Shown in pieces: positions 37,438 to 55,786 of a stretch of DNA of 64,000 bases; within the stretch, counting starts at the first letter, position 1, and each line of letters opens with the position of its first letter. The DNA is from an uncultured delta proteobacterium (GTDB taxonomy: Bacteria > Myxococcota_A > Polyangia > Fen-1088), in the NCBI GenBank assembly GCA_963737265.1, contig CAVTRY010000018.1:241414-305413 (forward strand), given 5' to 3'. The notes under the pieces were generated by a model. The model saw only the letters and a program-made list of their open reading frames with translations. It searched no databases and was not told the origin of the DNA. The position numbers were made by a program, and so were the translations under genes.

Positions 37438-37499
37438 CGGGGCTTTATAGCATTTCGCCCGAGCTCGCGATCTACTCGACGCGGACGACCGCCGCGCCC
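37411..37499 (+). repeat. Left 89-bp direct repeat bounding the CRISPR island
   Basis: 85/89 identical to 55698-55786 by manual alignment. Confidence 0.93.
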
Positions 37500-37582
37500 C
37501 ACATGATCGCCACATCTGCGCGCCGAGTGCCTGGTTTGACGTGTTCCGCGCGAACCGTCATTCGGGTGTACACTGGTGCGGC

Positions 37583-38605
37583 ATGACCGCTGACAGATCT
37601 GTCCATCGAGGTGCACAGTTCGTCCGGCAGTGGCGTCTGCTGCGCACATTAGAGAGGGCGACGCGCGGAATGACCGTCGCCCAGCTTAAGGAAGCGATCG
37701 AAGAGAAGCAGTCCACGCGCACCCTGTATCGCGACCTCGAAGTCCTGCAGCAGGCAGGCTTTCCCCTGACCAACGAAGACGGGCGCTGGCGACTGCTCGA
37801 AACCAGCGAGAGCTCGTGGGCCATACCCGTGAATCCCACCGAAGTCGTGGCCCTGATGCTGACCGAAGATCTGCTGGCCCCCGTCGAGGGAAGCTGGCTG
37901 GCCGAGCCCCTGGCTAACCTGCGCGCCCGCCTTTCGGCCACCTTAACCCCGACCGGCCGCCGCTACTGCGCCGAGCTTCGCAAAGCCAACGTCGCCACGG
38001 TCTTCGGCAGCGGCCACTACGGCGAAAAGCGCGCCGAGCTGGAATCTATCCACGAAGCCATCGAAAAACAACAGCGCGTGCGCATCACCTACGCCACCCC
38101 CGGCAAGCGCCCCGAAGAACGCACCATCGATCCCTACTGCACTTGGTTCGCCGCCGGCCGCGTGTACGTCGTCGCCTACTGCCACAAAGCCGAAGACACC
38201 CGCACCTTCGCCGTCCAGCGCATCAGTCACGCCCAAGTCCTCGACGAATCCTTCGATCCCGATCCCGCCTTCGATCCCGCCGCCTTCACCCGCAAAGGCT
38301 TCGGCGTCTACCACGGCCCCGTCTACCGCGTGACCATCGACTTCGCCCCCCGCGTCGCCCACCTCATCCGCGAGCGCCGCTTCCACGTCAGCCAGCAAGT
38401 GACCGACGTTGGCCGTGGCGTGCGCCTCAAAATGGAAGCAGCCGGCCTACCCGAAATCGCCGCCTGGGTCGCGGGATTCGGCGGCGACGCGCGCGTCGTG
38501 GCGCCCAACGAATTGGTCGAGGCGGTCAAGGGCATGCACCGGCGAGGGTTGGAAGTTGGCGTGACGGGGAAGGACGTGACCTCGGATGACACGAGGGAGA
38601 GGTAG
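37583..38605 (+). CDS. HTH-WYL-WCX transcriptional regulator
   Basis: STRTLYRDLEVLQQAGFP HTH; RTIDPY...VYVVAYCH...RTFAVQRI WYL; WVAGFG WCX. Confidence 0.92.
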   Translation: MTADRSVHRGAQFVRQWRLLRTLERATRGMTVAQLKEAIEEKQSTRTLYRDLEVLQQAGFPLTNEDGRWRLLETSESSWAIPVNPTEVVALMLTEDLLAPVEGSWLAEPLANLRARLSATLTPTGRRYCAELRKANVATVFGSGHYGEKRAELESIHEAIEKQQRVRITYATPGKRPEERTIDPYCTWFAAGRVYVVAYCHKAEDTRTFAVQRISHAQVLDESFDPDPAFDPAAFTRKGFGVYHGPVYRVTIDFAPRVAHLIRERRFHVSQQVTDVGRGVRLKMEAAGLPEIAAWVAGFGGDARVVAPNELVEAVKGMHRRGLEVGVTGKDVTSDDTRER

Positions 38606-38623
38606 CTTGAGGGAAGAGACCTG

Positions 38624-38926
38624 ATGAAGAAGCCCACGGTCCAAACGAACACCCGAACCAAGGCCACAACGAATCCACCTAGGGATGCCCGGATGGTCCG
38701 CGGACGCTCGCGCGAGGAGGCACTGTTCCCAGTGGCCCCGATGCGATCGGATCTTCCCAAGGACTACGCCGCGGCCCTGGCTGAAATCAAAGACCGCGTT
38801 CGGCAAGAACGCCTGCGTGTCGTTCTGGCCGCGAATTCGGCCATGGTCTTACTTTATTGGGACATCGGACGGGTGATTCTCGATCGACAGGCACGCGAGG
38901 GCTGGGGCGCGCGCGTCATCGATCGT
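38624..38926 (+). pseudogene. Truncated DUF1016/YhcG N-terminal fragment
   Basis: AANSAMVLLYWDIGRVILDRQAREGWGARVIDR is typical of DUF1016_N and breaks off abruptly. Confidence 0.8.
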
Positions 38927-39215
38927 CGGTTCGGACGCAGGGATGCGCAGACAGGCCGAGCTGAACCTTGTCGACTGGTCGAAGCCGTACATCGAATCGA
39001 ACTACCCTGGCGAGGTCGATGAGCGCATCATGACCCGACTGGGTGAAGGCGACCGCCGAGTCGCATTTGACCCGGCCTTCATAGGCCCCTTCGGCCTGCC
39101 CGTATCCGAATTGAACCTCAAAGCTTTCTGGGCGCGAGGAGTCCCGAGCGAAGAAGACCAGGCATCATCCGTGACATCGCACGATAGCGAGACCCGTTTC
39201 CGCTTCGGGGGTTGA
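38922..39215 (+). pseudogene. cas3: Probable C-terminal remnant of type I-E cas3
   Basis: AELNLVDWSKPY...IMTRLGEGDRRVAF...GPFG...RFRFGG resembles the Cas3 C-terminus (TRLG motif) and sits in the expected position. No HD or helicase motifs. Confidence 0.6.
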
Positions 39216-39435
39216 GCAAACCGACGACGAGGCCCGCATCGCGTGGGAGCAGACCGTCCAGGACATCGCCTCGGCGGAACTACAATGTGCCATCGAACGA
39301 TCCTGTGTGCCGGCTGTCCGACGGTACAAAGCCATCAGCGATGCCGAACGGAAGTTTCGCGGCTGTCTCAGGCTTCATTTTCCAGACCTAGTAACCGCTA
39401 CTAGCAGCGGCGACGACAAGGAGGCAACACCATGA
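39211..39435 (+). pseudogene. cas8e: Probable C-terminal remnant of cas8e (cse1/casA), no start codon
   Basis: VEQTDDEARIAWEQTVQDIASAELQCAIERSCVPAVRRYKAISDAERKFRGCLRLHFPDL; its TGA overlaps the cse2 ATG (ATGA); in-frame stop upstream at 39172. Confidence 0.65.
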
Positions 39436-39968
39436 CGACGGATAGCACCCAAGATGGGAACGGCGGAATCGATGGTCTCGTACATCGAATAGCAACCCTG
39501 CTAAAGCACGGGGGCAATGTGCTAACGACCGGGGACGTGGCGCTGCTACGCCGGATGGACCCTCGGCATCCGCCGTCGGCGTTCTTCAAACTGGAAGGCA
39601 CAGTGCTGGATGCGGTGCTGCCCGGGGAAGTCCATGCGCGAGAGGAGCGCGAGACGCGCTGGGCGGCGGTGGTGGTCGGACTCGCCCATCTCGGAGATCT
39701 GCACCGACCGGAGCGACGTCTCGGCGAAGCGCTTGCCGACGCCCACTTTTCCGAGCGGCGCTTCGCGCAGCTGCTCCGAGCAGACGCAGAACAACTCATC
39801 GACGAGATACCAATGGTCGCGCGCTACCTAGCTGCCAAGGGTGTGCCAGCTAATTTTTCCGCGGCCGCTTGGCTGATCCTGTCAGCCGGTCAGACCAACG
39901 AAGAGAGGGAGAGACGCAACATCGCCCGAGACTATTACGGTGCGATTGCACGCCAGACAAACGACTGA
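39432..39968 (+). CDS. cse2: Type I-E small subunit Cse2/CasB (Cas11)
   Basis: GDVALLRR, LGEALA, SERRFAQLLRA, IARDYY; immediately upstream of cas7. Confidence 0.85.
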   Translation: MTTDSTQDGNGGIDGLVHRIATLLKHGGNVLTTGDVALLRRMDPRHPPSAFFKLEGTVLDAVLPGEVHAREERETRWAAVVVGLAHLGDLHRPERRLGEALADAHFSERRFAQLLRADAEQLIDEIPMVARYLAAKGVPANFSAAAWLILSAGQTNEERERRNIARDYYGAIARQTND

Positions 39969-39994
39969 CTCAACACGAACGGAGGAGGCAACCG

Positions 39995-41287
39995 ATGTCC
40001 GCACAATTTCTACAAATCCACACGCTCACCAGTTATCCCGCGTCACTTCTGAACCGCGATGATGCGGGCTTTGCGAAGCGCATGCCGTTCGGCGGCGCAG
40101 TCCGCACCCGGATCTCTTCACAGTGTTTGAAAAGCCACTGGCGGGCCTTTGATGGCGAGAACAGTCTAGACGCCATTCAAGCGCCGGAATCCGTCCGATC
40201 GCGGGTGTCGTTTGAAGTGCATATCGTCAAGCCGCTCGTCAAGGACGGCGTTCCCGAGAACATCGCGCTCGCGGCAGCTGAAAAGCTCATAGGCAAGGTC
40301 TTTGGTGGCGAGGCAAAGAAGGAAAAAGCGGACAAGAACAAGGGCAGGAAGAAGACTCAGAGTGCGCCCGCAACGGTCCAGGTTGGCAGCGGTGACACAG
40401 CGGTGCCAGCGGCGGCCACCCCGGACGACTCCTCCACACCAGCAGAGCCTCTCACCAGCGATGCGGCCAAGACCGCCCAGGTCACGGTCCTTGGACAGCC
40501 AGAACTCGACTACTTGCTCCAAATCGCTCGCGAGGCGATCAAGACCACAGGAAACGACGTCGCAAGAATGGAGAAGGCGATCGACGATCGACTCGGCGAC
40601 AAGGACATGAAGAAGAACATCAAGGCCCTCAAGCCAGGCTCCCTGTCGGCAGGCCTTGGGGCAGCCCTTTTTGGGCGAATGGTGACAGGCGATATCCTTA
40701 CGCGCACAGACGCTGCGATCCATGTTGCCCACGCATTGACCGTTCACTCGCAGATGACGGAGAGCGACTACTTCTCGGCTATCGATGACCTCATTCGGGA
40801 AGATGGAGAACAGGAATCCGGCCACATCAACGCCAGCGAGTTGACTAGCGGACTCTTCTACGGATACGTGGTTGTGGACATAAACGGACTCGTCCAGAAT
40901 CTCGGAGGAGATCACAAGCTTGCTGCCGATGTTGTCGAGAAGCTGATACACATCGTCGCCAAGGTCAGCCCGGGCGCAAAGTTGGGCTCGACTGCGCCCT
41001 ACGCCTATAGCCATTTTGTCCTGGGCGAGAGTGGAAATGCCCAGCCACGCACTCTTCAGAATGCCTTCCTCGATCCGGTTCGCACGCAAGGAAATGTCGT
41101 CCAGAATGCCGAACAGGCGATGGCCAAGCACTTGCGCGAATTGGACGAAATGTATGGGAAGAGCGAGGTGCGCGCGCACGCGGGCCTGGGAGAAACGGAC
41201 AAGCTCTTCGAGGGCAAGACCAACCTGGTGAAACTGGCTGAGTGGGCCAAGCAACAAATCACAGGCAAGAACCAGCCGGGGATCTGA
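39995..41287 (+). CDS. cas7: Type I-E Cas7 (Cse4/CasC)
   Basis: QIHTLTSYPASLLNRDDAG, RISSQCLK, ALFGRM, VAHA, DYFSAIDD. Confidence 0.95.
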   Translation: MSAQFLQIHTLTSYPASLLNRDDAGFAKRMPFGGAVRTRISSQCLKSHWRAFDGENSLDAIQAPESVRSRVSFEVHIVKPLVKDGVPENIALAAAEKLIGKVFGGEAKKEKADKNKGRKKTQSAPATVQVGSGDTAVPAAATPDDSSTPAEPLTSDAAKTAQVTVLGQPELDYLLQIAREAIKTTGNDVARMEKAIDDRLGDKDMKKNIKALKPGSLSAGLGAALFGRMVTGDILTRTDAAIHVAHALTVHSQMTESDYFSAIDDLIREDGEQESGHINASELTSGLFYGYVVVDINGLVQNLGGDHKLAADVVEKLIHIVAKVSPGAKLGSTAPYAYSHFVLGESGNAQPRTLQNAFLDPVRTQGNVVQNAEQAMAKHLRELDEMYGKSEVRAHAGLGETDKLFEGKTNLVKLAEWAKQQITGKNQPGI

Positions 41288-42018
41288 TGCAAGTACTCGT
41301 ACTTCGCCTCGACGCACCCCTCGTCAGTTTCGGCGCCCCGATGGTCGACCAGAACGGTGTGGTCCAAGCCTTTCCACCGCTCTCGCTTTTGACAGGCATG
41401 ATAGGCAACGCCCTCGGATGGGGCCATCGAGATGTCGACAAGCTGACCGCCATGCAGAGCCGTCTTCGGTTCGCTTCGCGTATCGACAGGCGCGGCGAGG
41501 CGCTGATCGACTATCAGATCGTCGATCTTGGTCATGAATGGATGAAACCCGAAAATGCTGGTTGGACAACCCGAGGAACGATCGCCAGCCGCACTAGTGG
41601 CAGCAAGGAGAAATCGCATATCCGATATCGCCACTACCGTGCCGACAGCCTGCACACCGTGACGCTAACCCTTGTTGGCGAAGAAAGCCCAACTGTCGAC
41701 GAGGTCGCGCGAGCCCTCACCGAACCCGCACGGCCGCTGTTCATCGGAAGGAAATGTTGCATTCCCGCATCTCGCCTCCTGCTGGACACTATCGATGCGC
41801 CCTCCCTGGTGGCAGCACTGGCTGGCGTTCCGCGATCGGCTCGTGCCGATAGCGGCCCGTTGTCGGCTTGCTGGTGGGAAGGGGATGACCCAACCGGTAC
41901 GGTGGGAGACTCGCGAGTTGTCCCGGTGACGGACGAGCGAGACTGGAAGAATCAGATTCACACCGGGCGACGCCTCATGCGCGAGGGGCGCGTCGATCCG
42001 CCGGAGGCCCAACCGTGA
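41287..42018 (+). CDS. cas5: Type I-E Cas5 (CasD)
   Basis: LVLRLDAPLVSFG, GMIGNALG, RHYRAD, PLFIGRKCC. Confidence 0.93.
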   Translation: MQVLVLRLDAPLVSFGAPMVDQNGVVQAFPPLSLLTGMIGNALGWGHRDVDKLTAMQSRLRFASRIDRRGEALIDYQIVDLGHEWMKPENAGWTTRGTIASRTSGSKEKSHIRYRHYRADSLHTVTLTLVGEESPTVDEVARALTEPARPLFIGRKCCIPASRLLLDTIDAPSLVAALAGVPRSARADSGPLSACWWEGDDPTGTVGDSRVVPVTDERDWKNQIHTGRRLMREGRVDPPEAQP

Positions 42019-42767
42019 CTGAAGAAGAGGTCCATCTCGTAAAGGTTCCCCTGCGCGCCGATCGCGTCGCGGCCATCGCCCGAAGACGTCAGGTGCCAGT
42101 TCGGGATCTCGATGCCGACTACCTGGCTCACTGCCTGCTTCGTGAGTTGTGGCAAGAAGCGGCCCCGGCGCCGTTCGTCCTGAAGGGAAATGGCCGTGTT
42201 ATCGACGTTCTTGGCTACTCCCGGGCAGGGCGCGAGGCCCTCATCGACCGGGCGAGGACATTCGGCGATCCGGCAGTCCTCGACGCCATCGACGATCTCG
42301 ATGCAGTTGCTGCGAAGGAAATGCCGCGCCTAGAGCCTGGACGCCGGGTCGGATTCCGGGTGCGTGCGTGTCCAGTGGTACGTTTGGCGAAAGGGCGTTG
42401 TGACCATCGGGCGGGTGCCGAGATTGACGCCTTTCTCGCTCGATGCTTCAAGCTCGGGCCGAGTCAGAAGGTTGATCGACAGGAGGTCTACCGGGCGTGG
42501 CTGGCCAAGCGCTTCGAGAACCAGGAAGTGACCGGGGTCGAATTGGTGAACAGCCGGATAATCGGGATTGCCAGAGAACGGTTCATCCGTCGCACACACG
42601 GAGAGCAACGTGAGGCTCGCCGGATTGAGCGTCCAGATGTAACCTTTGGAGGTGATTTCATCGTCACCAATGGCGAAACGCTTCTGCGATTCCTCGCCCA
42701 CGGCCTTGGCAGACACCGTGCCTTCGGGTTCGGTGCCATCATGCTCGTGCCGCCGGGCGAACAATAG
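42015..42767 (+). CDS. cas6e: Type I-E Cas6 (Cse3/CasE)
   Basis: FRVRACP and C-terminal G-rich loop GLGRHRAFGFG. Confidence 0.92.
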   Translation: MTEEEVHLVKVPLRADRVAAIARRRQVPVRDLDADYLAHCLLRELWQEAAPAPFVLKGNGRVIDVLGYSRAGREALIDRARTFGDPAVLDAIDDLDAVAAKEMPRLEPGRRVGFRVRACPVVRLAKGRCDHRAGAEIDAFLARCFKLGPSQKVDRQEVYRAWLAKRFENQEVTGVELVNSRIIGIARERFIRRTHGEQREARRIERPDVTFGGDFIVTNGETLLRFLAHGLGRHRAFGFGAIMLVPPGEQ

Positions 42768-42788
42768 GCGAAGCATCGACGGGGGATT

Positions 42789-43745
42789 GTGCTCAAAGGC
42801 CGCCTCGGTTTAGAGACCGCGCGCATTCCCCATGCCGATCGCCACGGGTGCATCTGGCTTGGACGGGGCGTTCTTTCAGTCGAAGACGGAACCCTGCGGT
42901 TTGTAACGGCAGGGGGAGCGGGTCTTGCGGCAGGTTCTTACGGAATTCCATTTCAAACAGTCAGCGCCATCTTCCTTGAGCCCGGCACCACAATCAGTCA
43001 CGACGCCCTCAGACTGCTAGCCAGAAACGGAACGGGCCTGGTTTTCACGGGTGAAGACGGCGTTCGTTTCTATGCATCGCTGCCCTTCGGCCGCGATGAA
43101 AGCGCCCTGGCTCGCGCGCAGGTCCGGCTGTGGACCGACGAGGAGAAGCGCCGAACTGTAGCCCGGAAAATGTACGCAAGGCGGCTGGGCGAGATCCTCC
43201 CATCGGCCGACCTGAATGTTCTACGAGGCATCGAGGGGGCACGGGTACGAGTGCTGTACCGGACGCTTGCGCGCCAGTTCGACGTTCAATGGGCAGGTCG
43301 GAACTACGACCGCGACGATCCGGACGCTACCGATCTGGTCAACCAAGCCGTCAACCACGCCTCGGCTGCCATACGCGCTGCTGCGATGATCGCCGTAGCG
43401 GCAACGTCCACGATTCCCCAGCTCGGCTTCATCCATGAAGACTCCGCCAATGCCTTCTCCCTCGATATCGCTGATCTATTCCGCGAGTCCGTCTGCCTGC
43501 CCGCCGCCTTTCGGGCCGTGAAGCAATTCGAGAGCGACCCGGCCCAGCCTCTTGAGCGCCACGCGCGCCGATGGGCTGGACGCAGCCTGCGCGATGACAA
43601 GGTGATCCCGTCGATGATAGACGCGATCAAGGCAGTGCTGGTTGATGATGGATGCCCCTCGTCAACAACCGCAAAGCCGGGGGTCTCGACGCCAACAGAG
43701 CCAGAAGGATCGAACAAAGACTCTGAGCCGAGTCCAGCGCCATGA
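42789..43745 (+). CDS. cas1: Type I-E Cas1
   Basis: LEPGTTISHDA, LRGIEGARV, NQAVN, LGFIH, DIADLF. Confidence 0.95.
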   Translation: MLKGRLGLETARIPHADRHGCIWLGRGVLSVEDGTLRFVTAGGAGLAAGSYGIPFQTVSAIFLEPGTTISHDALRLLARNGTGLVFTGEDGVRFYASLPFGRDESALARAQVRLWTDEEKRRTVARKMYARRLGEILPSADLNVLRGIEGARVRVLYRTLARQFDVQWAGRNYDRDDPDATDLVNQAVNHASAAIRAAAMIAVAATSTIPQLGFIHEDSANAFSLDIADLFRESVCLPAAFRAVKQFESDPAQPLERHARRWAGRSLRDDKVIPSMIDAIKAVLVDDGCPSSTTAKPGVSTPTEPEGSNKDSEPSPAP

Positions 43746-44053
43746 CGATCGTCGTGACCCGGAACGCGCCCGACAGGTACCGGGGCTTCTTGGCGAGTTG
43801 CATGCTCGAGCTTGCCCCTGGCGTCTACGCGAGTCCGGAGATGTCCCGTGCAGTTCGCGACCGAATCTGGACCGTTTGTTGCGAGTGGGCTGGGTTACTG
43901 CCCAAGGACGGAGGCGTACTTATGACCTTTCGTGACAGGGAGAGCCCCAGTGGCCTCGCCGTCCTAACTCTCGGCTGGCCGAAAAAGGAACTCGTCGAGT
44001 TGGACGGCATCTGGATTGACCGCTCCCCTCCGGGATCTCTGAAAATCGAATAG
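43742..44053 (+). CDS. cas2: Type I-E Cas2 (no DnaQ fusion)
   Basis: MTIVVT...RGFLASCMLELAPGVY...VRDRIW...ELDGIW. Confidence 0.92.
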   Translation: MTIVVTRNAPDRYRGFLASCMLELAPGVYASPEMSRAVRDRIWTVCCEWAGLLPKDGGVLMTFRDRESPSGLAVLTLGWPKKELVELDGIWIDRSPPGSLKIE

Positions 44054-44142
44054 TTCATCGAGACGCATACGTCATCCACGGTCCAGCGCCGTCCGATCTG
44101 TCGCCAGAGTGTTCAGACTGGGCTATCCTGAACACTCTTACA
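44054..44142 (+). promoter_or_regulatory. Short CRISPR leader containing a perfect 11-bp inverted repeat
   Basis: Between the cas2 stop and the first repeat; AGAGTGTTCAG-N11-CTGAACACTCT at 44106-44138. Confidence 0.75.
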
Positions 44143-46305
44143 GGTTCCCCCGCGTCCGCGGGGATGGTCCCTTAACCTGGCAATCGTGAACCTTCGTCGC
44201 GATGGTTCCCCCGCGTCCGCGGGGATGGTCCCGCGAGGAGGATTCGATTGCTTGATCACCGTGAGGTTCCCCCGCGTCCGCGGGGATGGTCCCATCTTTC
44301 TCGGCGTTACGGTTCGAGTCCGTTCGGTTCCCCCGCGTCCGCGGGGATGGTCCCTATATACGCCAGACGCGTTAGATGAAGGTCGTGGTTCCCCCGCGTC
44401 CGCGGGGATGGTCCCATGTAGCGCAAGCAGCGACGTGGCAGGGGATTGGTTCCCCCGCGTCCGCGGGGATGGTCCCTTTGCGGGGCCTGGGCAGGCGCAC
44501 TGGGCGTCGGTTCCCCCGCGTCCGCGGGGATGGTCCAGCCAAGCAGCTCGTCGACGAGATGCTGCGCGAGGTTCCCCCGCGTCCGCGGGGATGGTCCCTA
44601 TCCAGCGCTGGCGGCCGCGGTTCCGATCCAGGTTCCCCCGCGTCCGCGGGGATGGTCCCTTAAGGCTCGCCTGCCAGAGCGCGATTCCCCCGGTTCCCCC
44701 GCGTCCGCGGGGATGGTCCCATCGAGCTAAATCCGCGCGAGCTGGCCGACCTGGTTCCCCCGCGTCCGCGGGGATGGTCCCTCGGCGTACTGCGCCTTGT
44801 TCATCTTGCTGACGGTTCCCCCGCGTCCGCGGGGATGGTCCTTGTAGGTGGTTTAAGAGAGATGTTTTGGCTAAGGTTCCCCCGCGTCCGCGGGGATGGT
44901 CCCTGCACCGCCGCGGCTTCTTCCCCCTTTGCCACGGTTCCCCCGCGTCCGCGGGGATGGTCCTATTGACCAAGATCCTTGCCGCGCATCGTAGCGGGTT
45001 CCCCCGCGTCCGCGGGGATGGTCCCTTCCCGCGAGTCGGCGGCCTGGCTATTGTGGCGGTTCCCCCGCGTCCGCGGGGATGGTCCCCCCAATTGCACGTA
45101 GCCCCAGGGGCGCAGCTTGGTTCCCCCGCGTCCGCGGGGATGGTCCCCATCGTAGCGGACCCGAAGATACTGCACCGAAGGTTCCCCCGCGTCCGCGGGG
45201 ATGGTCCCCCCCAAGCTGCCCGCATCCTGGCAGCCAGCGAGGTTCCCCCGCGTCCGCGGGGATGGTCCCACACGAAAGTCAGGTCGCGGGCGATATCGTG
45301 CGGTTCCCCCGCGTCCGCGGGGATGGTCCCGTCATCGGATTGCCCAAGCCCAGCGCATGGCCGGTTCCCCCGCGTCCGCGGGGATGGTCCCTCTTCCCTG
45401 TGTGTTGCCATGACTAGACCTCCGGTTCCCCCGCGTCCGCGGGGATGGTCCCTCGCTATCGACCATGTGGTCATAAAGAAAATCGGTTCCCCCGCGTCCG
45501 CGGGGATGGTCCCTCACCGCGTGCCCCTTTTTGCGACACCACCTTGGTTCCCCCGCGTCCGCGGGGATGGTCCCCCAAGTCCTCGAAGGTCCACAAAGAC
45601 TACGTTGGTTCCCCCGCGTCCGCGGGGATGGTCCCGCTGATGTTCGCCGAGGACAGAGCGGGCAGGCGGTTCCCCCGCGTCCGCGGGGATGGTCCACAGC
45701 CCGCCGCCATCGCACGCCCCTTTGCTTTGGTTCCCCCGCGTCCGCGGGGATGGTCCCACGAATTCGGCGAGCGCGCTATGGCACGACACGGTTCCCCCGC
45801 GTCCGCGGGGATGGTCCCCGGATATGCATGTTCTTTTCCATGAGTATGGCGGTTCCCCCGCGTCCGCGGGGATGGTCCCTCGATAGCCATCGGCGCCGGG
45901 ATGGATGTCGTGGTTCCCCCGCGTCCGCGGGGATGGTCCTTCGAGGCGTTTGTCAAAAGAGGACTCGCCAAGGGTTCCCCCGCGTCCGCGGGGATGGTCC
46001 CAAAAAGGCGGCATCGTTACGGTAGCTAGCCCGGGTTCCCCCGCGTCCGCGGGGATGGTCCCAAGCACATTGCCATCGAGAGTGGCCAGAAAATGGTTCC
46101 CCCGCGTCCGCGGGGATGGTCCTGAGTGCCGCATAAGCACATTTGTTCAGTGGTTGGTTCCCCCGCGTCCGCGGGGATGGTCCCTCGATGAAGGAACAGC
46201 GCGTAGCGGGACAAGTGGTTCCCCCGCGTCCGCGGGGATGGTCCCGGTCGCTCGCGATACTAGGTCGTGAGGGTCTTGGTTCCCCCGCGTCCGCGGGGAT
46301 GGTCC
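44143..46305 (+). CRISPR. Array 1, leader-proximal part: 36 repeats GGTTCCCCCGCGTCCGCGGGGATGGTCC(C)
   Basis: Exact 61-bp periodicity from 44143 to 46278, unique 33-nt spacers. Confidence 0.98.
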
Positions 46306-46308
46306 CCC

Positions 46309-47596
46309 CAGGGTCATCGCATCATCCCACATCGGGTTGGGCCATGAGGACTTGCAGAATGAAGTCCTGATCCCATGCCGCGCGCATTCGGCGAAGCCTG
46401 ATGCTGAGCTTGCAGTCTTTGACTGATTTGAGGAGGTTGAGTGAGATGTGGCGCATCACTGCAAAGTTCTGGGCGGCGTTGCCGGCGCGAACACGGCATT
46501 CGTCCTCACGGAAAGTGACGTCGAGAACCCAGTGCAATTCATTTTCGATTCCCCAGTGCTTCCGAGCGGCGTCGAGAGCGGCATCTGCTGGGAGGTTCTT
46601 TCGCGAACTGATGTAGTAGCGGCACTCGGTTGAAGTGTGCCCCGAGACCGTGCGCTCGGACTCGATCAATACCAAGCTGCTCAGACCCGTCCATTCCTGG
46701 TACTGGGAGATGCTCTCGACCATGTTTGTGGTCCAGCACCGGCGAACCTCGGTTCGTCCGTGCCCAACATCGCGTGTCTCGTGAAAATCCACGTCCAATC
46801 CCGTCGGGTCGCGACGACAATGCGCGAAGATTGTCGTCACTTCAGCGCTGAGCGTGGGTTGGTTCTCCTTCACCGCGAGCAGGTAATCCGCGTCGGCGTC
46901 CTGGATATCTGCGGTGATCTGCTTCTGGCAGCCCATCGCATCGATAGTTACTAGACAGCCCTTGATCTTCAGGAGCTTGAGCAACCGCGGAATGGCAGTG
47001 ATCTCGTTGGATTTCTCCTCTGTCTTGACCTGCCCAAGAACCACGTGGTTGTTGGTGGCCCAGGCACTAACCATGTGGACGAAAGCGTGGCTGCCGGCCT
47101 CTTGGAAGGATCGTCGCAGCGTCTTGCCGTCGATGGCCACGACCTCGCCTTTCGTGAGTCGCGCCACGCTCAAGATCCACTGCCGGAACCTCTCAGCCAG
47201 GGCATCTGGATTCAGGGCTGCAAACACCCTCCCGATGGTGTCGTGTGTGGGAATCCCGCCGCGCAGACCGATAAACGTTCGTAACCAGGCTTCTCTTGCC
47301 CGCCCATAGGTCTCGATAGCACAGAAGGAGTCAGCACCACAGACCACGGCACACAACGATAGCATCAGGATGTCCGTCAGCGCGTGGTGCCGCGTCCGCT
47401 CCACCCGCGGATCCGGCACCGACGCGAAGTACTCCAGGATCGATGCCGCCAGCTCTTCCTTTTCTCGTTCCGCCACGGTTGTTCGCTTCATGACTTACGA
47501 ACAAGCCACGATATCGCCCTTCAATCAAAAAACGTTCCTCTCTGGTGCGCCGGCTATACCACGAAGATCGTTCGGGATTTAGATGCGATGACCCTG
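46309..47596 (-). mobile_element. ISAs1-family insertion sequence
   Basis: 15-bp terminal inverted repeats CAGGGTCATCGCATC / GATGCGATGACCCTG enclosing a transposase. Confidence 0.92.
46322..47491 (-). CDS. ISAs1-family DDE transposase
   Basis: VPDPRV, PTHDT, AIDGKTLR, KSNEITAIP, TIDAMGCQ, HWGIENELHWVLDVTFRED. Confidence 0.96.
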   Translation of the reverse strand: MKRTTVAEREKEELAASILEYFASVPDPRVERTRHHALTDILMLSLCAVVCGADSFCAIETYGRAREAWLRTFIGLRGGIPTHDTIGRVFAALNPDALAERFRQWILSVARLTKGEVVAIDGKTLRRSFQEAGSHAFVHMVSAWATNNHVVLGQVKTEEKSNEITAIPRLLKLLKIKGCLVTIDAMGCQKQITADIQDADADYLLAVKENQPTLSAEVTTIFAHCRRDPTGLDVDFHETRDVGHGRTEVRRCWTTNMVESISQYQEWTGLSSLVLIESERTVSGHTSTECRYYISSRKNLPADAALDAARKHWGIENELHWVLDVTFREDECRVRAGNAAQNFAVMRHISLNLLKSVKDCKLSIRLRRMRAAWDQDFILQVLMAQPDVG

Positions 47597-47908
47597 TGTG
47601 CGATCCTCGTATTCGCTGGACTCGTATTTGCTGGACTCATCATGACGTACAATGTTCGTGCTGAAGAAAACCGTGTGACGGTGCGTGGTCTGAGCCAACG
47701 ACTGCAGCTCACGGGATGGCAGGCAAGCTGGCAGGTGCAAGGCGAGTTCATACCGCCGGTCTATCCCTTGCCCGGGGGCAAGATCCTGGCCATTGTGAAG
47801 AACCTGGAAACGGATGCCCTCGCTCTCATGCTTTGGGACAGAGAGGGGCACGAGCTGGGACGAAGCCCTCTCGACATCGTCGGCAGGGCCAACGCATCTA
47901 AATTGTAA
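47588..47908 (+). CDS. Small cargo ORF (106 aa) with a signal-peptide-like N-terminus, function unknown
   Basis: MTLCAILVFAGLVFAGLIMTYNVRAEE...; its ATG lies inside the IS terminal repeat. Confidence 0.4.
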   Translation: MTLCAILVFAGLVFAGLIMTYNVRAEENRVTVRGLSQRLQLTGWQASWQVQGEFIPPVYPLPGGKILAIVKNLETDALALMLWDREGHELGRSPLDIVGRANASKL

Positions 47909-48046
47909 GTGATCTTGCGGAGATGCCGATAGTTATGCCGGTCTCCGCGCCCGTGCGCGCTGCCGAACCTGCCTGCACACCGGCGCGCGCACCGACCCCA
48001 GGGGAAAACCTTCCAGAAATGGCCGAGACTCTGATGGATCCTGCGT

Positions 48047-48072
48047 CGATGTAGGATGATGCGATGGCCCTG
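48047..48072 (+). repeat. Third ISAs1 end (copy of the transposase-distal end) followed by the 10-bp target duplication
   Basis: CGATGTAGGATGATGCGATGGCCCTG matches the reverse complement of 46309-46334 at 24/26; ATGGTCCCCC at 46299-46308 and 48073-48082. Confidence 0.88.
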
Positions 48073-48112
48073 ATGGTCCCCCCCTCTCGCGCTCCGGCCC
48101 CCCCTCCGGTAA

Positions 48113-51100
48113 GGTTCCCCCGCGTCCGCGGGGATGGTCCCAGCAGGCGCGAGGGCCAGAGCATAGGCAAGGTGGTTCCCCCGCGTCCGCGGGGATGGTC
48201 CCCTGTGGAGCCGATGGTTGCTCTTTTCCAGCAAGGTTCCCCCGCGTCCGCGGGGATGGTCCCACCGCGCTCGAAGACCAGTTGGAGCTTGGTGGGGTTC
48301 CCCCGCGTCCGCGGGGATGGTCCCGACCTTTTCGCGGTCGTGTTGCTTGGTTCCACGGTTCCCCCGCGTCCGCGGGGATGGTCCCAGCTCCTCGTCGCGT
48401 GCCCAAGGTTCGTCAGTGGTTCCCCCGCGTCCGCGGGGATGGTCCCACTTACAATCAGTTGTCGATATTTCTCTCGACGGTTCCCCCGCGTCCGCGGGGA
48501 TGGTCCCGAGGCAGCCAGCAGCCCGGTCCCGATGCCCACGGTTCCCCCGCGTCCGCGGGGATGGTCCCAACGACGTGAAACAGAAGCACCTGAAGGCGTC
48601 GGTTCCCCCGCGTCCGCGGGGATGGTCCCTTTCTGGCCGATATGGGACTTCGACCGTCTGGGGTTCCCCCGCGTCCGCGGGGATGGTCCCTGTCCGGCGG
48701 ATTGCATCGAGCAAGGGAAGTTGGTTCCCCCGCGTCCGCGGGGATGGTCCCTTCGTCGATTGCTTTACCTGTCTCGATGGCGCGGTTCCCCCGCGTCCGC
48801 GGGGATGGTCCCAAGTCATGCGCCACCGGGGTGCCACAAGGATTGGTTCCCCCGCGTCCGCGGGGATGGTCCCTACTTGAAGGCGTTGCGGATGGATATT
48901 CCAAAGGTTCCCCCGCGTCCGCGGGGATGGTCCCTCTGCGGGGCCTGGGCAGGCGCACTGGGCGTCGGTTCCCCCGCGTCCGCGGGGATGGTCCCGACAT
49001 CACCAAGGGCTTTATCAAGGGTACCGCGGTTCCCCCGCGTCCGCGGGGATGGTCCCGCCGTTGGTATTCAGTCGCAGAACGCCTCGACGGTTCCCCCGCG
49101 TCCGCGGGGATGGTCCCCTGACCTTTGCGACTCAGCGGCTCGAACGAGCGGTTCCCCCGCGTCCGCGGGGATGGTCCCCTTTCGCCCCCGTATCTACTCA
49201 TGGTCGCAAAGGTTCCCCCGCGTCCGCGGGGATGGTCCGCACGGATTCGATCCGACATGGATGCCGTCACAGGTTCCCCCGCGTCCGCGGGGATGGTCCC
49301 CGCCAGCACGACTTCGAGCGCAGCTAATTCCTGGTTCCCCCGCGTCCGCGGGGATGGTCCTATGCAGGGCTTCCGGCCGAGGCATCCGCCGACGGTTCCC
49401 CCGCGTCCGCGGGGATGGTCCCGGTACCGGAAGACGTGGTCATGGACCCAAGATGGTTCCCCCGCGTCCGCGGGGATGGTCCCTCCACCGAGCAAGTGAC
49501 GGCGCTGGCGGCCTGGGTTCCCCCGCGTCCGCGGGGATGGTCCCTTCGCCGAAGAGCTGATCGTCCTGCTGGTCAAGGTTCCCCCGCGTCCGCGGGGATG
49601 GTCCGCAGGTCGAGGCGCTGCTGAAAGCGTGGCACTTGGTTCCCCCGCGTCCGCGGGGATGGTCCCCACCTCGAACTTTTTCCACTATTGTCGTTCCCGG
49701 TTCCCCCGCGTCCGCGGGGATGGTCCCCATGGCAGAAACGAAAAAAGGCAGCCGACGTAGGTTCCCCCGCGTCCGCGGGGATGGTCCCTGTGGATAGGGG
49801 ATTTGCAGTCGGACCGCGAGGGTTCCCCCGCGTCCGCGGGGATGGTCCCGATTATCACCGTTGGGGTAGATGCCCTGCTCGGGTTCCCCCGCGTCCGCGG
49901 GGATGGTCCCATCATCGACAAGCTTCCGGAGACGAAGACGGCGGTTCCCCCGCGTCCGCGGGGATGGTCCCAACGAAATCAATCAGGACCCGCGATTTGA
50001 CGAGGTTCCCCCGCGTCCGCGGGGATGGTCCAGGCGAGCGGCGTCCGCGTTGGCGCGGTTCAGGGGTTCCCCCGCGTCCGCGGGGATGGTCCCCGCGTAC
50101 GTCCCGCAGTCGCTACCACCGGCAGGGTTCCCCCGCGTCCGCGGGGATGGTCCCACCTGGTCCACAGACAGACACCGCGAGTCCCGGGTTCCCCCGCGTC
50201 CGCGGGGATGGTCCCCGGGGCAAGCCCGAATTCTACGTCCTATCCGCGGTTCCCCCGCGTCCGCGGGGATGGTCCCTAGAAGAGAACAAGATCCTAGAAA
50301 AGGCCGACGGTTCCCCCGCGTCCGCGGGGATGGTCCCTACGCTGCTACTAGCCGCCGACGAATCGCCGCGGTTCCCCCGCGTCCGCGGGGATGGTCCCAC
50401 ATCATCTTCTACCGTGCTATCCTCTCCAGCGGTTCCCCCGCGTCCGCGGGGATGGTCCCAGGTACGGCAGCCACGGGTAATCTTTGGGATAGGTTCCCCC
50501 GCGTCCGCGGGGATGGTCCCTTGCGCGCCGTCGTGCAAGGCGAGTCGACGATCGGTTCCCCCGCGTCCGCGGGGATGGTCCCGCGACCAGCGCTTGGCTT
50601 CCTACCGCGCGGGCGGTTCCCCCGCGTCCGCGGGGATGGTCCCTATACCACACCCACGATTGTACCGTTGCGGGTGGTTCCCCCGCGTCCGCGGGGATGG
50701 TCCCGAGCGAGCGACAACAAGCCCGCTTCGGCTGAGGGTTCCCCCGCGTCCGCGGGGATGGTCCCTGCAATGTCCCCCAGGATCAGAGACCCCACCGGGT
50801 TCCCCCGCGTCCGCGGGGATGGTCCCCGCTCACCAGAGCAGCTGGAATGCCTGCGCAAGGTTCCCCCGCGTCCGCGGGGATGGTCCCCGAAACCGCCCGA
50901 ATTAGTCAAGAGCCGTCGAGGTTCCCCCGCGTCCGCGGGGATGGTCCCGCTTTCCACAAAGGCAGTCTACTGGCCAGTGCGGTTCCCCCGCGTCCGCGGG
51001 GATGGTCCCCGAGTATCGGCACGGCCGAGCAAGACGAGGTTGGTTCCCCCGCGTCCGCGGGGATGGTCCTTATTCACGAGGCAGCGGCACAATGACGGTG

Positions 51101-52960
51101 CCGGTTCCCCCGCGTCCGCGGGGATGGTCCCGCTATGCCGGGCCCGAAACGTGGCCGCTCACGGGTTCCCCCGCGTCCGCGGGGATGGTCCCCGACGTTG
51201 CTGTGTGGACATTGTCCGGCACCCGGTTCCCCCGCGTCCGCGGGGATGGTCCCGCGCAGGCGGTGGACGCCGCAGGCTCCACGCAGGTTCCCCCGCGTCC
51301 GCGGGGATGGTCCCGCCCTGGTGCCCCCAGCAGGATTGACCGCGCTGGTTCCCCCGCGTCCGCGGGGATGGTCCCTCGCGCAGTAGCGTGCGAAACTTCG
51401 CGCCTTGGGTTCCCCCGCGTCCGCGGGGATGGTCCCTATAGCCGCTGAGTGGGCGATGTACCATGGCGGGTTCCCCCGCGTCCGCGGGGATGGTCCTTCC
51501 ATCGCGGTTTTCATCGCCGCGCCTCCACGGGTTCCCCCGCGTCCGCGGGGATGGTCCCAAGTCGGTGCAGGCGAGCGAAATTGCGCAACGGGTTCCCCCG
51601 CGTCCGCGGGGATGGTCCCTTGACAAAATGAAGGCGCGCCTTGTTGGCGTAGGTTCCCCCGCGTCCGCGGGGATGGTCCCTGTGGCTAATGGTGTTTACG
51701 GCGACTATGCAAGGTTCCCCCGCGTCCGCGGGGATGGTCCCTCAAAGACGTTGCCCAGGCTGTCTCGTCGAAGGGTTCCCCCGCGTCCGCGGGGATGGTC
51801 CCATCAGAACGAAACGGCAACTCTGCAAACTAGCGGTTCCCCCGCGTCCGCGGGGATGGTCCCCCACTGCGCGAGTGCGCGCAGCTCGGCCGGAAGGTTC
51901 CCCCGCGTCCGCGGGGATGGTCCCGGCACGGGCGCGGTATTGCCTGGCACTTTCGGGGTTCCCCCGCGTCCGCGGGGATGGTCCTTGGCATTGATAGGGC
52001 TGGCAAGTGCTGACAAAGGTTCCCCCGCGTCCGCGGGGATGGTCCCGAGGAGTCGTATCCGTCGTATGAATCGCGTGCGGTTCCCCCGCGTCCGCGGGGA
52101 TGGTCCCGATGACGCGTTGCTGGACGATACCAGTTACCGGGTTCCCCCGCGTCCGCGGGGATGGTCCCAAGTACGCGTTTCATGACAAATGCTCCTTTTT
52201 GGTTCCCCCGCGTCCGCGGGGATGGTCCCTACCACCTCAAGTCAAAGGACCGACACCATGAGGTTCCCCCGCGTCCGCGGGGATGGTCCCTTTGAGGGTG
52301 GCGCCAGTTAGTAGGCGATGTAGGTTCCCCCGCGTCCGCGGGGATGGTCCCAAAATGGAGGCTGTCTTGGTGGCTGATTTGTCGGTTCCCCCGCGTCCGC
52401 GGGGATGGTCCCTACGCGGGTCTGGGTGCTGGAGTCTCGACAGTGGTTCCCCCGCGTCCGCGGGGATGGTCCCTGCCGTCGACCAAATCGAGATAGCCGC
52501 AAATTGGTTCCCCCGCGTCCGCGGGGATGGTCCCCTCGAGGGCGCCGCTTTCCACGACTAGACCTTGGTTCCCCCGCGTCCGCAGGGATGGTCCTTGCAG
52601 ATGCGCACAATTGCCGCAGCAATGCCAGGTTCCCCCGCGTCCGCGGGGATGGTCCCTTCCATGCTTATCCGGTTCACACACTCCACAAGGTTCCCCCGCG
52701 TCCGCGGGGATGGTCCCCGTGGATGCAGCGTGCTGGTGGATCCATCAGTGGTTCCCCCGCGTCCGCGGGGATGGTCCCCTTCGGCTCTGACGCTTGCGGA
52801 GCTTGGCGCCGGTTCCCCCGCGTCCGCGGGGATGGTCCGTGTCGAAAACGGCGCGCGCTTCGGCGGTCAGCGGTTCCCCCGCGTCCGCGGGGATGGTCCC
52901 AGGAGTTGATGCCTGTCGGCGAAGGGCGCGAAGGTTCCCCCGCGTCCGCGGGGATGGTCC
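48113..52960 (+). CRISPR. Array 1, distal part: 80 further repeats of the same sequence
   Basis: 61-bp period, one 62-bp unit at 50492-50554, one variant repeat at 52567. Confidence 0.98.
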
Positions 52961-53035
52961 CATTTGTACGCGGGCCTGCTAACGTGCTGGACGTCAACTA
53001 CATTCACCCGGTGACGTCAATTACATCGCCCCGCT

Positions 53036-54231
53036 CCGTTCCCCGCGCACGCGGGGATGAACCGAAGGCTGACCATGTCATTGATTTGTTGCTGGACCGT
53101 TCCCCGCGCACGCGGGGATGAACCGACTCGCAATCGACCGTCGGGTGTGCTGTGCGCCCGTTCCCCGCGCACGCGGGGATGAACCGACCAGAGCGGAGGG
53201 GGGCGGGCAATTCCGCCGCCGTTCCCCGCGCACGCGGGGATGAACCGGCCAGCTCCGTTGTTGAGTCGGCCCTAGCGCGCCGTTCCCCGCGCACGCGGGG
53301 ATGAACCGGTCGGGCAGCAGGAACAAAAGTTCGACGCGAACCGTTCCCCGCGCACGCGGGGATGAACCGGTTTATTGGCTGCGAGTTCCCGCGACCGTTG
53401 ACCGTTCCCCGCGCACGCGGGGATGAACCGGCTTGGGGGGGATGGACAACATCGAGGTCATCCCGTTCCCCGCGCACGCGGGGATGAACCGCACGCCTCA
53501 GAGCTAATCGAGTCCGTGAAGCGCCGTTCCCCGCGCACGCGGGGATGAACCTTCAGCGCCGCTACGGCGCGCTTATCGGCCACGTGGGGCAGCCGTTCCC
53601 CGCGCACGCGGGGATGAACCGGATGGTCTCGGGGAACACTCCAAAGTCGGTTGCCGTTCCCCGCGCACGCGGGGATGAACCGATTTCGTTTGCGGCCGGC
53701 CCGACTAGCGTTTGCCGTTCCCCGCGCACGCGGGGATGAACCGGATATCGACAGAGCTGGCGAGGTGATGCTTGCCCGTTCCCCGCGCACGCGGGGATGA
53801 ACCGAGGCGCTGCAGATCGATGATGCTCGGCGCAAGCCGTTCCCCGCGCACGCGGGGATGAACCGGAGGTGCATCATGATCGGACTCGGTGACATCTCCG
53901 TTCCCCGCGCACGTGGGGATGAACCGACCACGATGAAGACGCGGAGGCTTGCGCAGATCCGTTCCCCGCGCACGCGGGGATGAACCGAGGTGGAGGAACG
54001 CAGGCGCGCAGCTCGTCGGCCGTTCCCCGCGCACGCGGGGATGAACCGTTGCGCGCGTGGCGGATTGAGAATGCTCGCCACCGTTCCCCGCGCACGCGGG
54101 GATGAACCGATGCAGTGGTAGCGCTGGTGCAGCTCGCTCACCCGTTCCCCGCGCACGCGGGGATGAACCGCCAGGCATGGCAAGTAGGTCGCTGACCGGG
54201 AGCCGTTCCCCGCGCGCGCGGGGATGAACCC
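53036..54231 (+). CRISPR. Array 2: 20 repeats CCGTTCCCCGCGCACGCGGGGATGAACC(G), 19 spacers
   Basis: 61-bp period, one 41-nt spacer, degenerate terminal repeat at 54203. Confidence 0.97.
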
Positions 54232-54688
54232 CGGTCACCGCGTCCTGGTCCTCGCACGCGCTCGCGCGCGGGTGCGGGCACATGAGCGCCGGCCAGCGCC
54301 GCGCTCGCGCTGGCAAGGCCCAGTCCGCTCCATCGTGCAGGCGCCCAGCGCCGCGATCTTCGCCCGAGCACCGTCGCGCGCGTGCCCCCTGCCGGGCGCA
54401 CGCGCGCACGACTCCATCGAAGAAAGCGGCGCCACACGGTAGACGCTCCCATGCCGCGGCGCCTCGCTCGCAAGTGCCCTCAGGGGAGAAAGCGGCGGTC
54501 AAGTTGTGCTTGCATCGGACGCCTCGGCATGGTCGCTGCATCGGGAAAGGCGGCGACGACAGCTCACGGACGCCAGCGCCACGATCGTGCACAAAGCGGC
54601 GGCGCGCGCCTGGCGCAGACATCAAGAGCTGGAAACACCCGTGCAGAATGATGCTTCATCGCGCTCGTGGGCGCGCTACACTTGGAAC

Positions 54689-54928
54689 ATGCTGCAGTCG
54701 CAGGAAATCTTGGAAGCCGCGCTCGAGCTTCCCGAGAAAGATCGGGAGACGCTCGTCGACAAACTGGCCGCGAGCTTGCACGGCGGTTTTGCCTCGGCGG
54801 AAATCGAGCAGGCATGGGCTGTCGAGATCGAACGACGCTGCGCCGATGTCGACGCTGGCCGCGCTGTCCTTCGCGACTGGGACGAGGTCCGAGACGAGAT
54901 CCTTGCCGACCTCCGTGCCCGACCCTAA
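54689..54928 (+). CDS. Addiction-module antitoxin (TIGR02574-like)
   Basis: ILEAALELPEKDRETLVDKLAASL...AWAVEIERR...DWDEVR. Confidence 0.82.
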   Translation: MLQSQEILEAALELPEKDRETLVDKLAASLHGGFASAEIEQAWAVEIERRCADVDAGRAVLRDWDEVRDEILADLRARP

Positions 54929-55340
54929 GAAGCCATACAGCATTCACGCCGAGGTGACGCTGGACTTGCGCCTGGCGGCTCGCTGGTACGAGCAGCGGCA
55001 GCGTGGCCTTGGTGCGCAATTTGTCCTCGCCGTGGACGACGCCATCGCCACGATCGTCGCGGCCCCGCAGCGGTGGACCGTCTTCGCTGGGGCTCGCCGC
55101 TACATCCTCAGGCGATTTCCCTTCTCGGTCATCTATCGCGTCGTCGATGTACGGATCCAAGTCGTCGCCGTCGCTCACCACAGCCGGCGTCCAGTCTACT
55201 GGGACGCCCTCTCTGAATCTGGACGCCGTGGCATCCGGGCCGGCTCGCCGCTGGCTCGCTGGCGATGGGCTCGCCGCGCGGCTCACCGGCGCCACCGCCG
55301 GCCTTACCGACTTCCTTCCTTTAGCTGCCTTTCCCGGTAG
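54915..55340 (+). CDS. RelE/ParE-family toxin, possibly with C-terminal read-through
   Basis: AARWYEQRQRGLGAQF, RRFPFSVIY, VAVAHHSRRPVYW; GTG start overlaps the antitoxin. Confidence 0.82.
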   Translation: MPDPKKPYSIHAEVTLDLRLAARWYEQRQRGLGAQFVLAVDDAIATIVAAPQRWTVFAGARRYILRRFPFSVIYRVVDVRIQVVAVAHHSRRPVYWDALSESGRRGIRAGSPLARWRWARRAAHRRHRRPYRLPSFSCLSR

Positions 55341-55697
55341 AATCGCCAGCACGACGATGGTCCTGGCTCAGCAGGAAGCGAACGAAACGCAATCGTTTAG
55401 CGACCTTCCTGGATCACCAAGGCAAATCGCTCAGAGCAGAGACGACGTAGCACATGCCATCATCAATGCGATTTATTCGGTGGTCGAGCCCTTGGAGAAG
55501 GGCGTCGTTTTCTACGAGACGAACTAGCGAGGTGTCCCTCCAGGTGTCCCTCCGTATCTATCCGGTAGTTCGCATCTGGCTTGGCCATTGCGGATGCGCG
55601 ACAGTGGGTGACGAGGTGAGCAATGGCAGCAAGCGCAGAAACATCGAGAGAAGAGGGAATTGAAAGACGGCCCCCGAGGGGGTGTTGGACAGCGAAG

Positions 55698-55786
55698 CTT
55701 GACGTTGGCCGGTAGCTCAGACACCGGGGCCTTATAGCCTTTCGCCCGAGCTTGCGATCTACTCGACGCGGACGACCGCCGCGCCC
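55698..55786 (+). repeat. Right 89-bp direct repeat (cinA 3' end plus a dead copy of the hisS start)
   Basis: 85/89 identical to 37411-37499. Confidence 0.93.

Follow-up and report, generated by a model that had tools for sequence, protein, structure and literature searches.

The locus described here lies in a 64,000-nt stretch of DNA (hereafter the window, to which all positions refer) from an uncultured delta proteobacterium of the lineage Fen-1088 (GenBank assembly GCA_963737265.1, contig CAVTRY010000018.1, positions 241,414 to 305,413 of the forward strand), and it consists of a type I-E CRISPR-Cas operon (short palindromic repeats, clustered and regularly interspaced, with their associated genes) followed by two arrays with different repeats. 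Profile searches recovered all six backbone and adaptation genes, those for Cse2, Cas7e, Cas5e, Cas6e, Cas1e and Cas2e, and the 29-nt hairpin repeat, the spacers of about 32 nt and the leader beside cas2 are all present for this resident I-E system (Table 1). The first array (array 1) is that of the resident cse2-cas7-cas5-cas6e-cas1-cas2 operon and has a proper leader of 89 bp; the second (array 2) stands downstream of it, and how the two came to be joined is the main subject of this report.

The anatomy could be read directly from a pattern scan of the window, which gave 116 matches to the array 1 repeat GGTTCCCCCGCGTCCGCGGGGATGGTCC, all on the plus strand between 44143 and 52960 and exact in 115 cases (the single-mismatch copy is at 52567), while the shuffled sequence gave no match to this repeat. 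For array 2 there were 20 matches to CCGTTCCCCGCGCACGCGGGGATGAACC, again all on the plus strand (53036-54230), 18 of them exact; the one-mismatch copies are at 53898 and at the final repeat (54203), whose variant sequence, CGCGCGCGCGGGG, is the repeat consensus of the congener G036 discussed below. The repeat counts, the common orientation and the 75 bp of separation (52961-53035) that a preliminary description of this DNA had given were all confirmed by the scan, and repeat 116, the last of array 1 (52933-52960), is perfect, as was also stated there. That description had further noted a common hairpin with differing handles, and this too agrees with what we find: the two repeats form an identical hairpin, a CCCCGC/GCGGGG stem of 6 bp closed by a tetraloop, their sequences part after GGGG (ATGGTCCC in array 1 versus ATGAACCG in array 2), and three of the eight bases of the 5′ handle differ between them. 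Both arrays have the same period, 61 bp, and repeats of the same length, 29 nt. A single chimeric array would be expected to keep its period unbroken, and here the 61-bp period is broken at the gap, where a non-repeat segment of 75 bp lies between the two repeat types.

The two arrays also differ in the first base of their spacer units. In type I-E systems the base after the 28-nt repeat originates from the protospacer adjacent motif (PAM). This base is G in 18 of the 19 array 2 units, and likewise in 110 of 111 units of G036, but C in 99 of the 114 units of array 1; under the I-E rule the arrays were therefore filled by machineries with differing PAM preferences.

In order to place each array in a clade, we compared the resident Cas1 with its relatives. 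The closest Cas1 in the species-representative collection, at 92% amino acid identity, is that of locus L057 in genome G089, where the stretch spanning cse2 to cas2 has 85% DNA identity to the window and is followed by a homologous leader and two repeats of GTTTCCCCCGCGCTCGCGGGGATGGTCC. The hisS genes of G089 and the window are 79% identical, and the values for 12 congeners span 77-85%. Among the 74 loci fetched by Cas1, 51 have an array of at least three repeats. The GAACC handle of repeat 2 occurs in none of the 44 array-bearing loci with a Cas1 at least 53% identical to that of the window, in which the handles are GGACC, AGACC, CGACC, GGTCC and similar, and it occurs in six of the seven with a Cas1 only 32-39% identical; both repeat classes together were found in none of the 51. 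Because the handle class tracks Cas1 identity across these loci, repeat 1 is the repeat of the resident cas clade and repeat 2 that of another, E. coli-like I-E clade; a comparison of Cas1 relationship with repeat type had been called for in the preliminary description.

An intact system with the second repeat exists in the same genus. A repeat scan of 88 family relatives, allowing up to two mismatches, found repeat 1 in none of them and repeat 2 in two, both congeners, namely G033 (6 matches) and G036 (113 matches). In G036 the 113 repeats of GTTCCCCGCGCGCGCGGGGATGAACC lie directly 3′ of a complete I-E operon, cas3-cse1-cse2-cas6e-cas7-cas5-cas1-cas2, in which every cas gene reaches the curated NCBIfam cut-off (cas3 by the cas3_core and cas3_HD domain models). 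Its proteins are distant from those of the window, with identities of 35.9% for Cas1, 30-38% for Cas7, 28% for Cas5 and 34% for Cas2, and the two Cas6e proteins are alignable over 38 residues only. The gene order differs as well between these two I-E clades within one genus, since cas6e stands between cse2 and cas7 in G036 (L039, G036:C16:135000-152000) and after cas5 in the window and in G089. The G036 array itself contains an internal duplication of about nine spacers (8-16 being the same as 30-38). Canonical I-E systems of E. coli and Thermus have 29-nt repeats ending in ...GGGGATAAACCG, and their Cas6e leaves an 8-nt 5′ handle. Array 2 and G036 resemble them in their 29-nt repeats, 32-nt spacers, GAACCG-type handle and the G that is mostly the last repeat base, whereas the resident system of array 1 forms a sister clade with a GGTCC(C) handle, C as the usual last base and cas6e after cas5.

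A second I-E cas set is absent from the genome that holds the window (G000, rated 99.49% complete and 7.6% contaminated): tblastn searches with the window Cas proteins and all open reading frames (ORFs) of G036 returned the window genes only. An operon cognate to repeat 2, which the preliminary description had proposed to look for, is present complete in G036 and was found nowhere in G000. The G033 array has no adjoining cas genes, and G000 carries a second orphan type-2 mini-array (G000:C23:32778-32925) of three repeats, the first and third degenerate, with neither adjoining cas genes nor an AT-rich leader. Orphan type-2 arrays therefore recur within the genus, given that the G033 and C23 arrays both stand without cas genes. 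Synteny of the flank of the G036 type-2 locus with the window, or with C23 near 32 kb, was considered and rejected; the homology of that flank is to C23:503-509 kb and to the surroundings of the I-G locus on C21.

The 75-bp gap between the arrays was searched against the family genomes. Its first 23 nt after repeat 116 have no match elsewhere in these genomes, nor in an exact metagenome scan (0 matches). Bases 24-72 are 100% identical to nine other sites in the same genome and 83-98% identical to sites in relatives, many of which lie at contig ends. All nine own-genome sites begin at the same base of an element terminus, with unrelated DNA outside, and all nine run on into the interior of the element as ATTGTTGTCGG, where the window has GCT and then array 2. 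The source element, of 2,494 bp, is an insertion sequence (IS) of the IS21 family: it encodes IstA (NF033546, 171 bits) and IstB (NF038214, 241 bits), both above the cut-off, and its terminus carries GACGTCAA(C/T)TACAT twice. The genome has 19 uninterrupted copies (at least 99.8% identity), two split ones and three short fragments including that of the window. The left junction of the gap is a normal insertion junction and the right one an illegitimate join within the IS, and we read the gap as the scar of an IS insertion that was followed by a deletion. It follows that the view of both arrays as one array with one trailer, put forward in the preliminary description, was not borne out, the arrays being joined by a scar with a 49-bp IS21 terminus.

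The absence of an evident second leader, on the other hand, had been rightly noted. The sequence of the gap is unlike the array 1 leader, the conserved leaders of more than 30 Cas1-clade relatives and the type-2 leader of G036. The more distant of the Cas1-clade relatives have leaders with a common TCTTTGACA motif and a ...CAGA end; the type-2 leader of G036 ends in ...TTGATGTTGCAAGGTTGGAGCAAGA, a near-identical sequence precedes a type-2 repeat in a contig of public run X2, and in the window's own genome the G036 leader motif is nowhere found beside a repeat. A consensus scan of 52700-53300 showed no sigma-70-like promoter and no terminator-like site. From these comparisons array 2 is predicted to lack a functional leader. 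Two other candidates were rejected: a promoter for array 2 in the IS21 end, since the fragment is the istB-proximal end and the consensus scan gave no promoter, and the upstream flank of the C23 mini-array as a homologue of the gap, with which only short words such as TGTACGC are common, treated here as chance. Elsewhere in the genome a full copy of the same IS21-family element (G000:C8:5520-8015, L143) cuts the I-C array inside a repeat, after 16 nt, with the remainder of the repeat gone on the far side and no target duplication, so that this array also appears to have been truncated by an IS21-associated event. The same end of the element faces the array at that site and at array 1 of the window.

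These results bear on the idea that array 2 is independent and live, with the 75 bp serving as a minimal leader or promoter and the resident Cas1-Cas2 and Cas6e acting in trans. The equal period and repeat length of the two arrays and the 18 perfect repeats out of 20 would agree with it, but two thirds of the gap are IS terminus, of which about 20 identical copies exist elsewhere, the gap is unlike the leaders of either clade, the first spacer bases point to differing PAM rules, and no array-bearing locus of the Cas1 relatives combines the two repeat classes; we regard this idea as highly improbable. Given that it has no leader, and no cognate cas set in the genome, array 2 would instead be a leaderless orphan remnant, or fossil, of the second I-E clade that is still intact in G036. 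As such it would be unable to acquire new spacers, and it could be transcribed, if at all, only by read-through over 8.8 kb that include an antisense IS.

That IS is a 1,767-bp element of the ISAs1 family that splits array 1 into 36 and 80 repeats; neither it nor the break in the 61-bp period at the gap had been noted in the preliminary description. The 10-bp duplication ATGGTCCCCC flanks it on both sides, and copies of it on C12 and C13 are 100% and 99.9% identical. The copy in array 1 has about 480 bp extra (about 47600-47880) that are missing from most other copies.

The resident operon has suffered losses of its own. In G089 the genes before cse2 are, in order, a WYL regulator, a DUF1016 gene, a DnaQ-like exonuclease gene, cas3 (866 aa) and cse1 (514 aa), and since only the WYL gene and fragments of DUF1016, Cas3 and Cse1 survive in the window, two deletions therefore took out cas3 and cse1. 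For cse1 this claim rests on the comparison with the G089 homologue and not on the Cse1 family models, which had no match in the genome and, among 14 control genomes, matched only Thermus. The other Cas3 genes of the genome belong to the I-C (C8) and I-G (C21) loci. I-E interference should thus be dead, as the resident system, without cas3 and cse1, would leave neither array able to direct it, whereas Cas6e processing and Cas1-Cas2 adaptation look intact by model coverage. The surviving cas3 fragment (38925-39210) has 96% DNA identity to G089, compared with 85% in the flanking homologous stretches. The genome holds three type I systems in all, I-E in the window, I-C (C8:16-26 kb, about 68 repeats) and I-G (C21:263-282 kb, about 79 repeats), and a WYL-domain regulator precedes each of them; the WYL/DUF1016 module before the I-C cas3 has 89-99% DNA identity to that of the window, with a different internal deletion.

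Table 1. Features of the CRISPR-Cas island and its borders (positions in the window).
Feature	Position	Strand	Basis
Left copy of 89-bp direct repeat: hisS-upstream intergenic region and last ~28 bp of cinA-like gene	37412..37500	.	95.5% identity to 55698-55786
HTH-WYL-WCX transcriptional regulator	37541..38605	+	Pfam WYL 77.9 bits, WCX 63.3 bits; 85% nt identity to G089:C38
DUF1016/PDDEXK-like N-terminal fragment, ~100 aa	38624..38926	+	DUF1016_N; 86% identity to aa 1-101 of 389-aa G089 protein
I-E cas3 fragment, aa 742-837 of 866	38922..39209	+	tblastn, 95.8% identity; intact gene in G089
cse1/cas8e fragment, aa 441-514 of 514	39211..39432	+	63.5% identity; G089 ORF matches casA_cse1
cse2 (casB)	39405..39965	+	Pfam CRISPR_Cse2 49.7 bits; 76% identity to G089 Cse2
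cas7e (casC)	39869..41287	+	TIGR01869, 278 bits
cas5e (casD)	41242..42018	+	TIGR01868, 143 bits
cas6e (casE)	42015..42767	+	Pfam CRISPR_assoc 77.6 bits; TIGR01907 37.1 bits, below cut-off 45.2
cas1e	42789..43745	+	TIGR03638, 277 bits
cas2e	43742..44053	+	TIGR01873, 81.5 bits
Array 1 leader	44054..44142	+	44110-44171 92% identical to G089 (L057) leader and first repeat; compared with leaders of Cas1 relatives
Array 1 leader-proximal block, 36 repeats	44143..46305	+	Repeat scan
ISAs1-family insertion sequence, at repeat/spacer boundary	46307..48073	-	Transposase 46322-47491 (-), NF033564 417.7 bits
Array 1 distal block, 80 repeats, last one perfect	48113..52960	+	Repeat scan
23 nt after repeat 116: usual 29th base C and 22 nt of cut-off spacer/trailer	52961..52983	+	Sequence reading
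Solo 49-bp IS21-family terminus, istB-proximal end, outer tip towards array 1	52984..53032	.	Identity to genome copies
GCT, 3 nt between IS fragment and array 2 repeat 1; illegitimate junction	53033..53035	+	Sequence reading
Array 2, 20 repeats assigned to the other I-E clade, leaderless	53036..54230	+	Repeat scan; comparison of spacer units and relatives' repeats
Mosaic of fragments of integrase-bearing repeated element known from congeners G035, G036	54229..55697	.	Homology to G035/G036
Right copy of 89-bp direct repeat, continuous with intact cinA-like gene (55759-56508, -)	55698..55786	.	Repeat comparison

The state of the operon also weighs on the interpretation with which the preliminary description had closed. 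In this view another I-E clade took the place of an older I-E system in situ while the memory of the latter was kept, in working form, and a single pre-crRNA (precursor CRISPR RNA) may be cut at both repeats by the resident Cas6e to give two crRNA classes that are used. The same orientation of the arrays, the gap free of terminator-like sites, the identical stem sequence of both repeats and the absence of a promoter or leader of its own at array 2 are what one would expect under such reuse, and the array 2 spacer at 53865 agrees in 29 of 33 bases with one from the I-G array of the same genome, which suggests a memory of invaders relevant to this lineage. Against it, cas3 and cse1 are missing for any I-E interference, three of the eight handle bases differ, the Cas6e proteins of the two clades can be aligned over 38 residues only, the transcript must cross a 1.77-kb IS with an antisense gene in array 1, and the join is an IS scar and no tidy replacement. 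We therefore hold this interpretation to be unlikely. Its first part stands, in that two I-E clades are represented, and the memory was kept in the sense that array 2 is the retained remnant of another I-E system; as to the replacement in situ, tandem systems followed by an IS-associated deletion fit equally well. To the mechanism that reuse would need, namely read-through from the array 1 leader or from within the ISAs1 element across the scar, and cutting of the clade-2 repeats by Cas6e into foreign-handle crRNAs, we likewise give little credence. If it were true, crRNAs of about 61 nt starting with the handle AUGAACCG would come from array 2, and the locus would be a case of cross-clade CRISPR memory reuse within I-E, be it for residual Cascade binding, Cas3-free gene silencing or priming.

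Several spacers are related to one another. The array 2 spacer mentioned above (spacer 14, 53865-53897) resembles the I-G array spacer at G000:C21:274826-274858 on the opposite strand, over 33 bases, and two spacers of the G036 type-2 array have near counterparts in spacers 76 and 114 of array 1 (23/25 and 27/29 bases); the same invaders are sampled by different systems of the genus. Within array 1, spacers 6 (44476-44508) and 49 (48934-48966) are identical at 30 of 33 bases, only the first three differing, which looks like two independent or slipped acquisitions from a single protospacer.

The whole locus is an island. Two 89-bp direct repeats bracket 18.2 kb (37501-55697), from the WYL gene through the mosaic that follows array 2, and hisS and the cinA-like gene, which flank it here, adjoin each other directly in 11 of the 12 congener loci examined, the twelfth being too short to show hisS. 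With the site empty in those 11 loci, the island is thus an insertion peculiar to this genome. A segment found twice in each of G035 and G036 corresponds, at 92-93% identity, to the 393 bp right after array 2 (54229-54623); in G036 this segment lies downstream of a tyrosine-recombinase gene, and in both congeners the homology to this element extends upstream past the point where the window turns into array 2. No integrase remains within the island, which retains only fragments of the element that has the tyrosine recombinase in G036. Homology to the integrase-bearing element sets in exactly at the final repeat, which makes the right end of array 2 a breakpoint as well; array 2 is therefore bounded by a rearrangement junction on either side.

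The conserved flanks are relevant to the possibility that the junction is an artefact, in which the assembler joined a locus with array 1 and a full IS to one with a truncated IS end and array 2 through the 49-bp terminus. The shared 49 bp occur about 20 times in the genome, which may be a metagenome bin and has the contamination rating given above, and these facts would favour a chimera. However, the assembly resolves the nineteen 2.5-kb IS copies within contigs that reach 1.4 Mb, which indicates that the assembler bridges repeats far longer than 49 bp; the island is flanked by hisS and the cinA-like gene, neighbours in nearly all congener loci, so that a second, compensating false join would be required; and exact spacer units of both arrays are present in run X1. 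We consider a chimera very improbable. Among public reads, 35% of the words sampled from 52600-53400 occur in one run, X1, and the runs listed for these words include none of RNA. Over 52300-54700, runs X1, X9, X10 and X2 gave short Logan contigs that break at each repeat and at the IS terminus, and no listed piece spans 52961-53035.

Taken together, we consider it likely that the locus is a composite type I-E island in decay, whose two unrelated arrays were brought together by a deletion associated with IS21, and we infer the succession of events and the make-up of the deleted DNA as follows. The same island would once have contained the type-1 locus and a type-2 array, the latter accompanied or not by cas genes of its own, and an IS21-family element would have inserted 23 nt past the present repeat 116. 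A later illegitimate deletion may then have run from base 50 of the IS rightwards to 3 nt before an array 2 repeat, removing the rest of the IS and everything between. Lost in this way were probably the degenerate true end of array 1 and, from array 2, both the leader and the part next to it; the cas operon belonging to array 2 may have gone as well. The loss of the end of one array and of the head of the other would explain at once why array 1 closes with a perfect repeat, why a second leader is missing and why there is a single degenerate trailer.

A number of observations weigh against this history. No intermediate form was found, such as one in which the IS at 52984 is still whole or one with a type-2 cas operon lying between array 1 and array 2, and an exact metagenome scan for the first spacer of array 2 gave 0 matches. 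No target-site duplication is recoverable for the IS at 52984, because the other end of the IS is gone, and for the junction at 52961-53035 the assembly is the sole support. None of the array 2 spacers is common to the arrays of G036, G033 or C23, so that descent from a G036-like locus is not directly visible. Finally, the breakpoint at the right end of array 2 means that a single deletion is too simple a history, and array 2 may have come in as a fragment.

Compared with known systems, most features of the locus are familiar. Orphan CRISPR4 arrays of E. coli were reportedly treated by Almendros et al. in 2016. More generally, according to a published study, arrays far from the cas locus tend to have different repeats and leaderless arrays are shorter (PMC12814883). 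Array 2 is like these in that it has no leader or cognate cas genes, a repeat unlike that of the resident system and a short length (20 versus 116 repeats), but it differs in that it is not remote, lying 75 bp from, and in the same orientation as, an array that belongs to a different clade of this subtype, and in that its join is marked by a datable scar, the IS21 terminus. As for inactivation by IS, 28 natural insertions into cas genes have been described, and that paper also mentions IS insertion into CRISPR loci (PMC10359306, Nat Commun 2023). The window is comparable, with the ISAs1-family copy in array 1, the IS21 remnant at its end and cas3 and cse1 deleted; here, however, the IS hits are in or beside the arrays, the cas losses are deletions and one IS is left only as a 49-bp terminus. 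In Pseudomonas aeruginosa an isolated, horizontally acquired array is reported to be used by the resident I-F system (PMC13142298, bioRxiv 2026); array 2 is likewise an extra array outside the standard locus architecture, but in the window effector genes are missing. A limited literature search gave no account of arrays of two I-E clades fused via an IS remnant, which does not establish that none exists.

Orphan and leaderless arrays and the inactivation of CRISPR-Cas by IS are thus already documented, and the window locus exemplifies both cleanly; what is unusual is the head-to-tail union of arrays from two clades of one subtype via a recognisable IS remnant. The case also calls for caution in automated annotation, since an array caller would merge the arrays or link array 2 to the wrong cas genes. 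In addition, the locus is a natural substrate for questions on the tolerance of Cas6e and Cascade for the repeats of a sister I-E clade. It is a clear worked example of CRISPR erosion and of the origin of an orphan array by ordinary genome erosion, with no new mechanism, in which the 49-bp IS21 terminus would be a precise record of the event that removed the leader and cas genes of an array and fused it to a neighbour from another clade.

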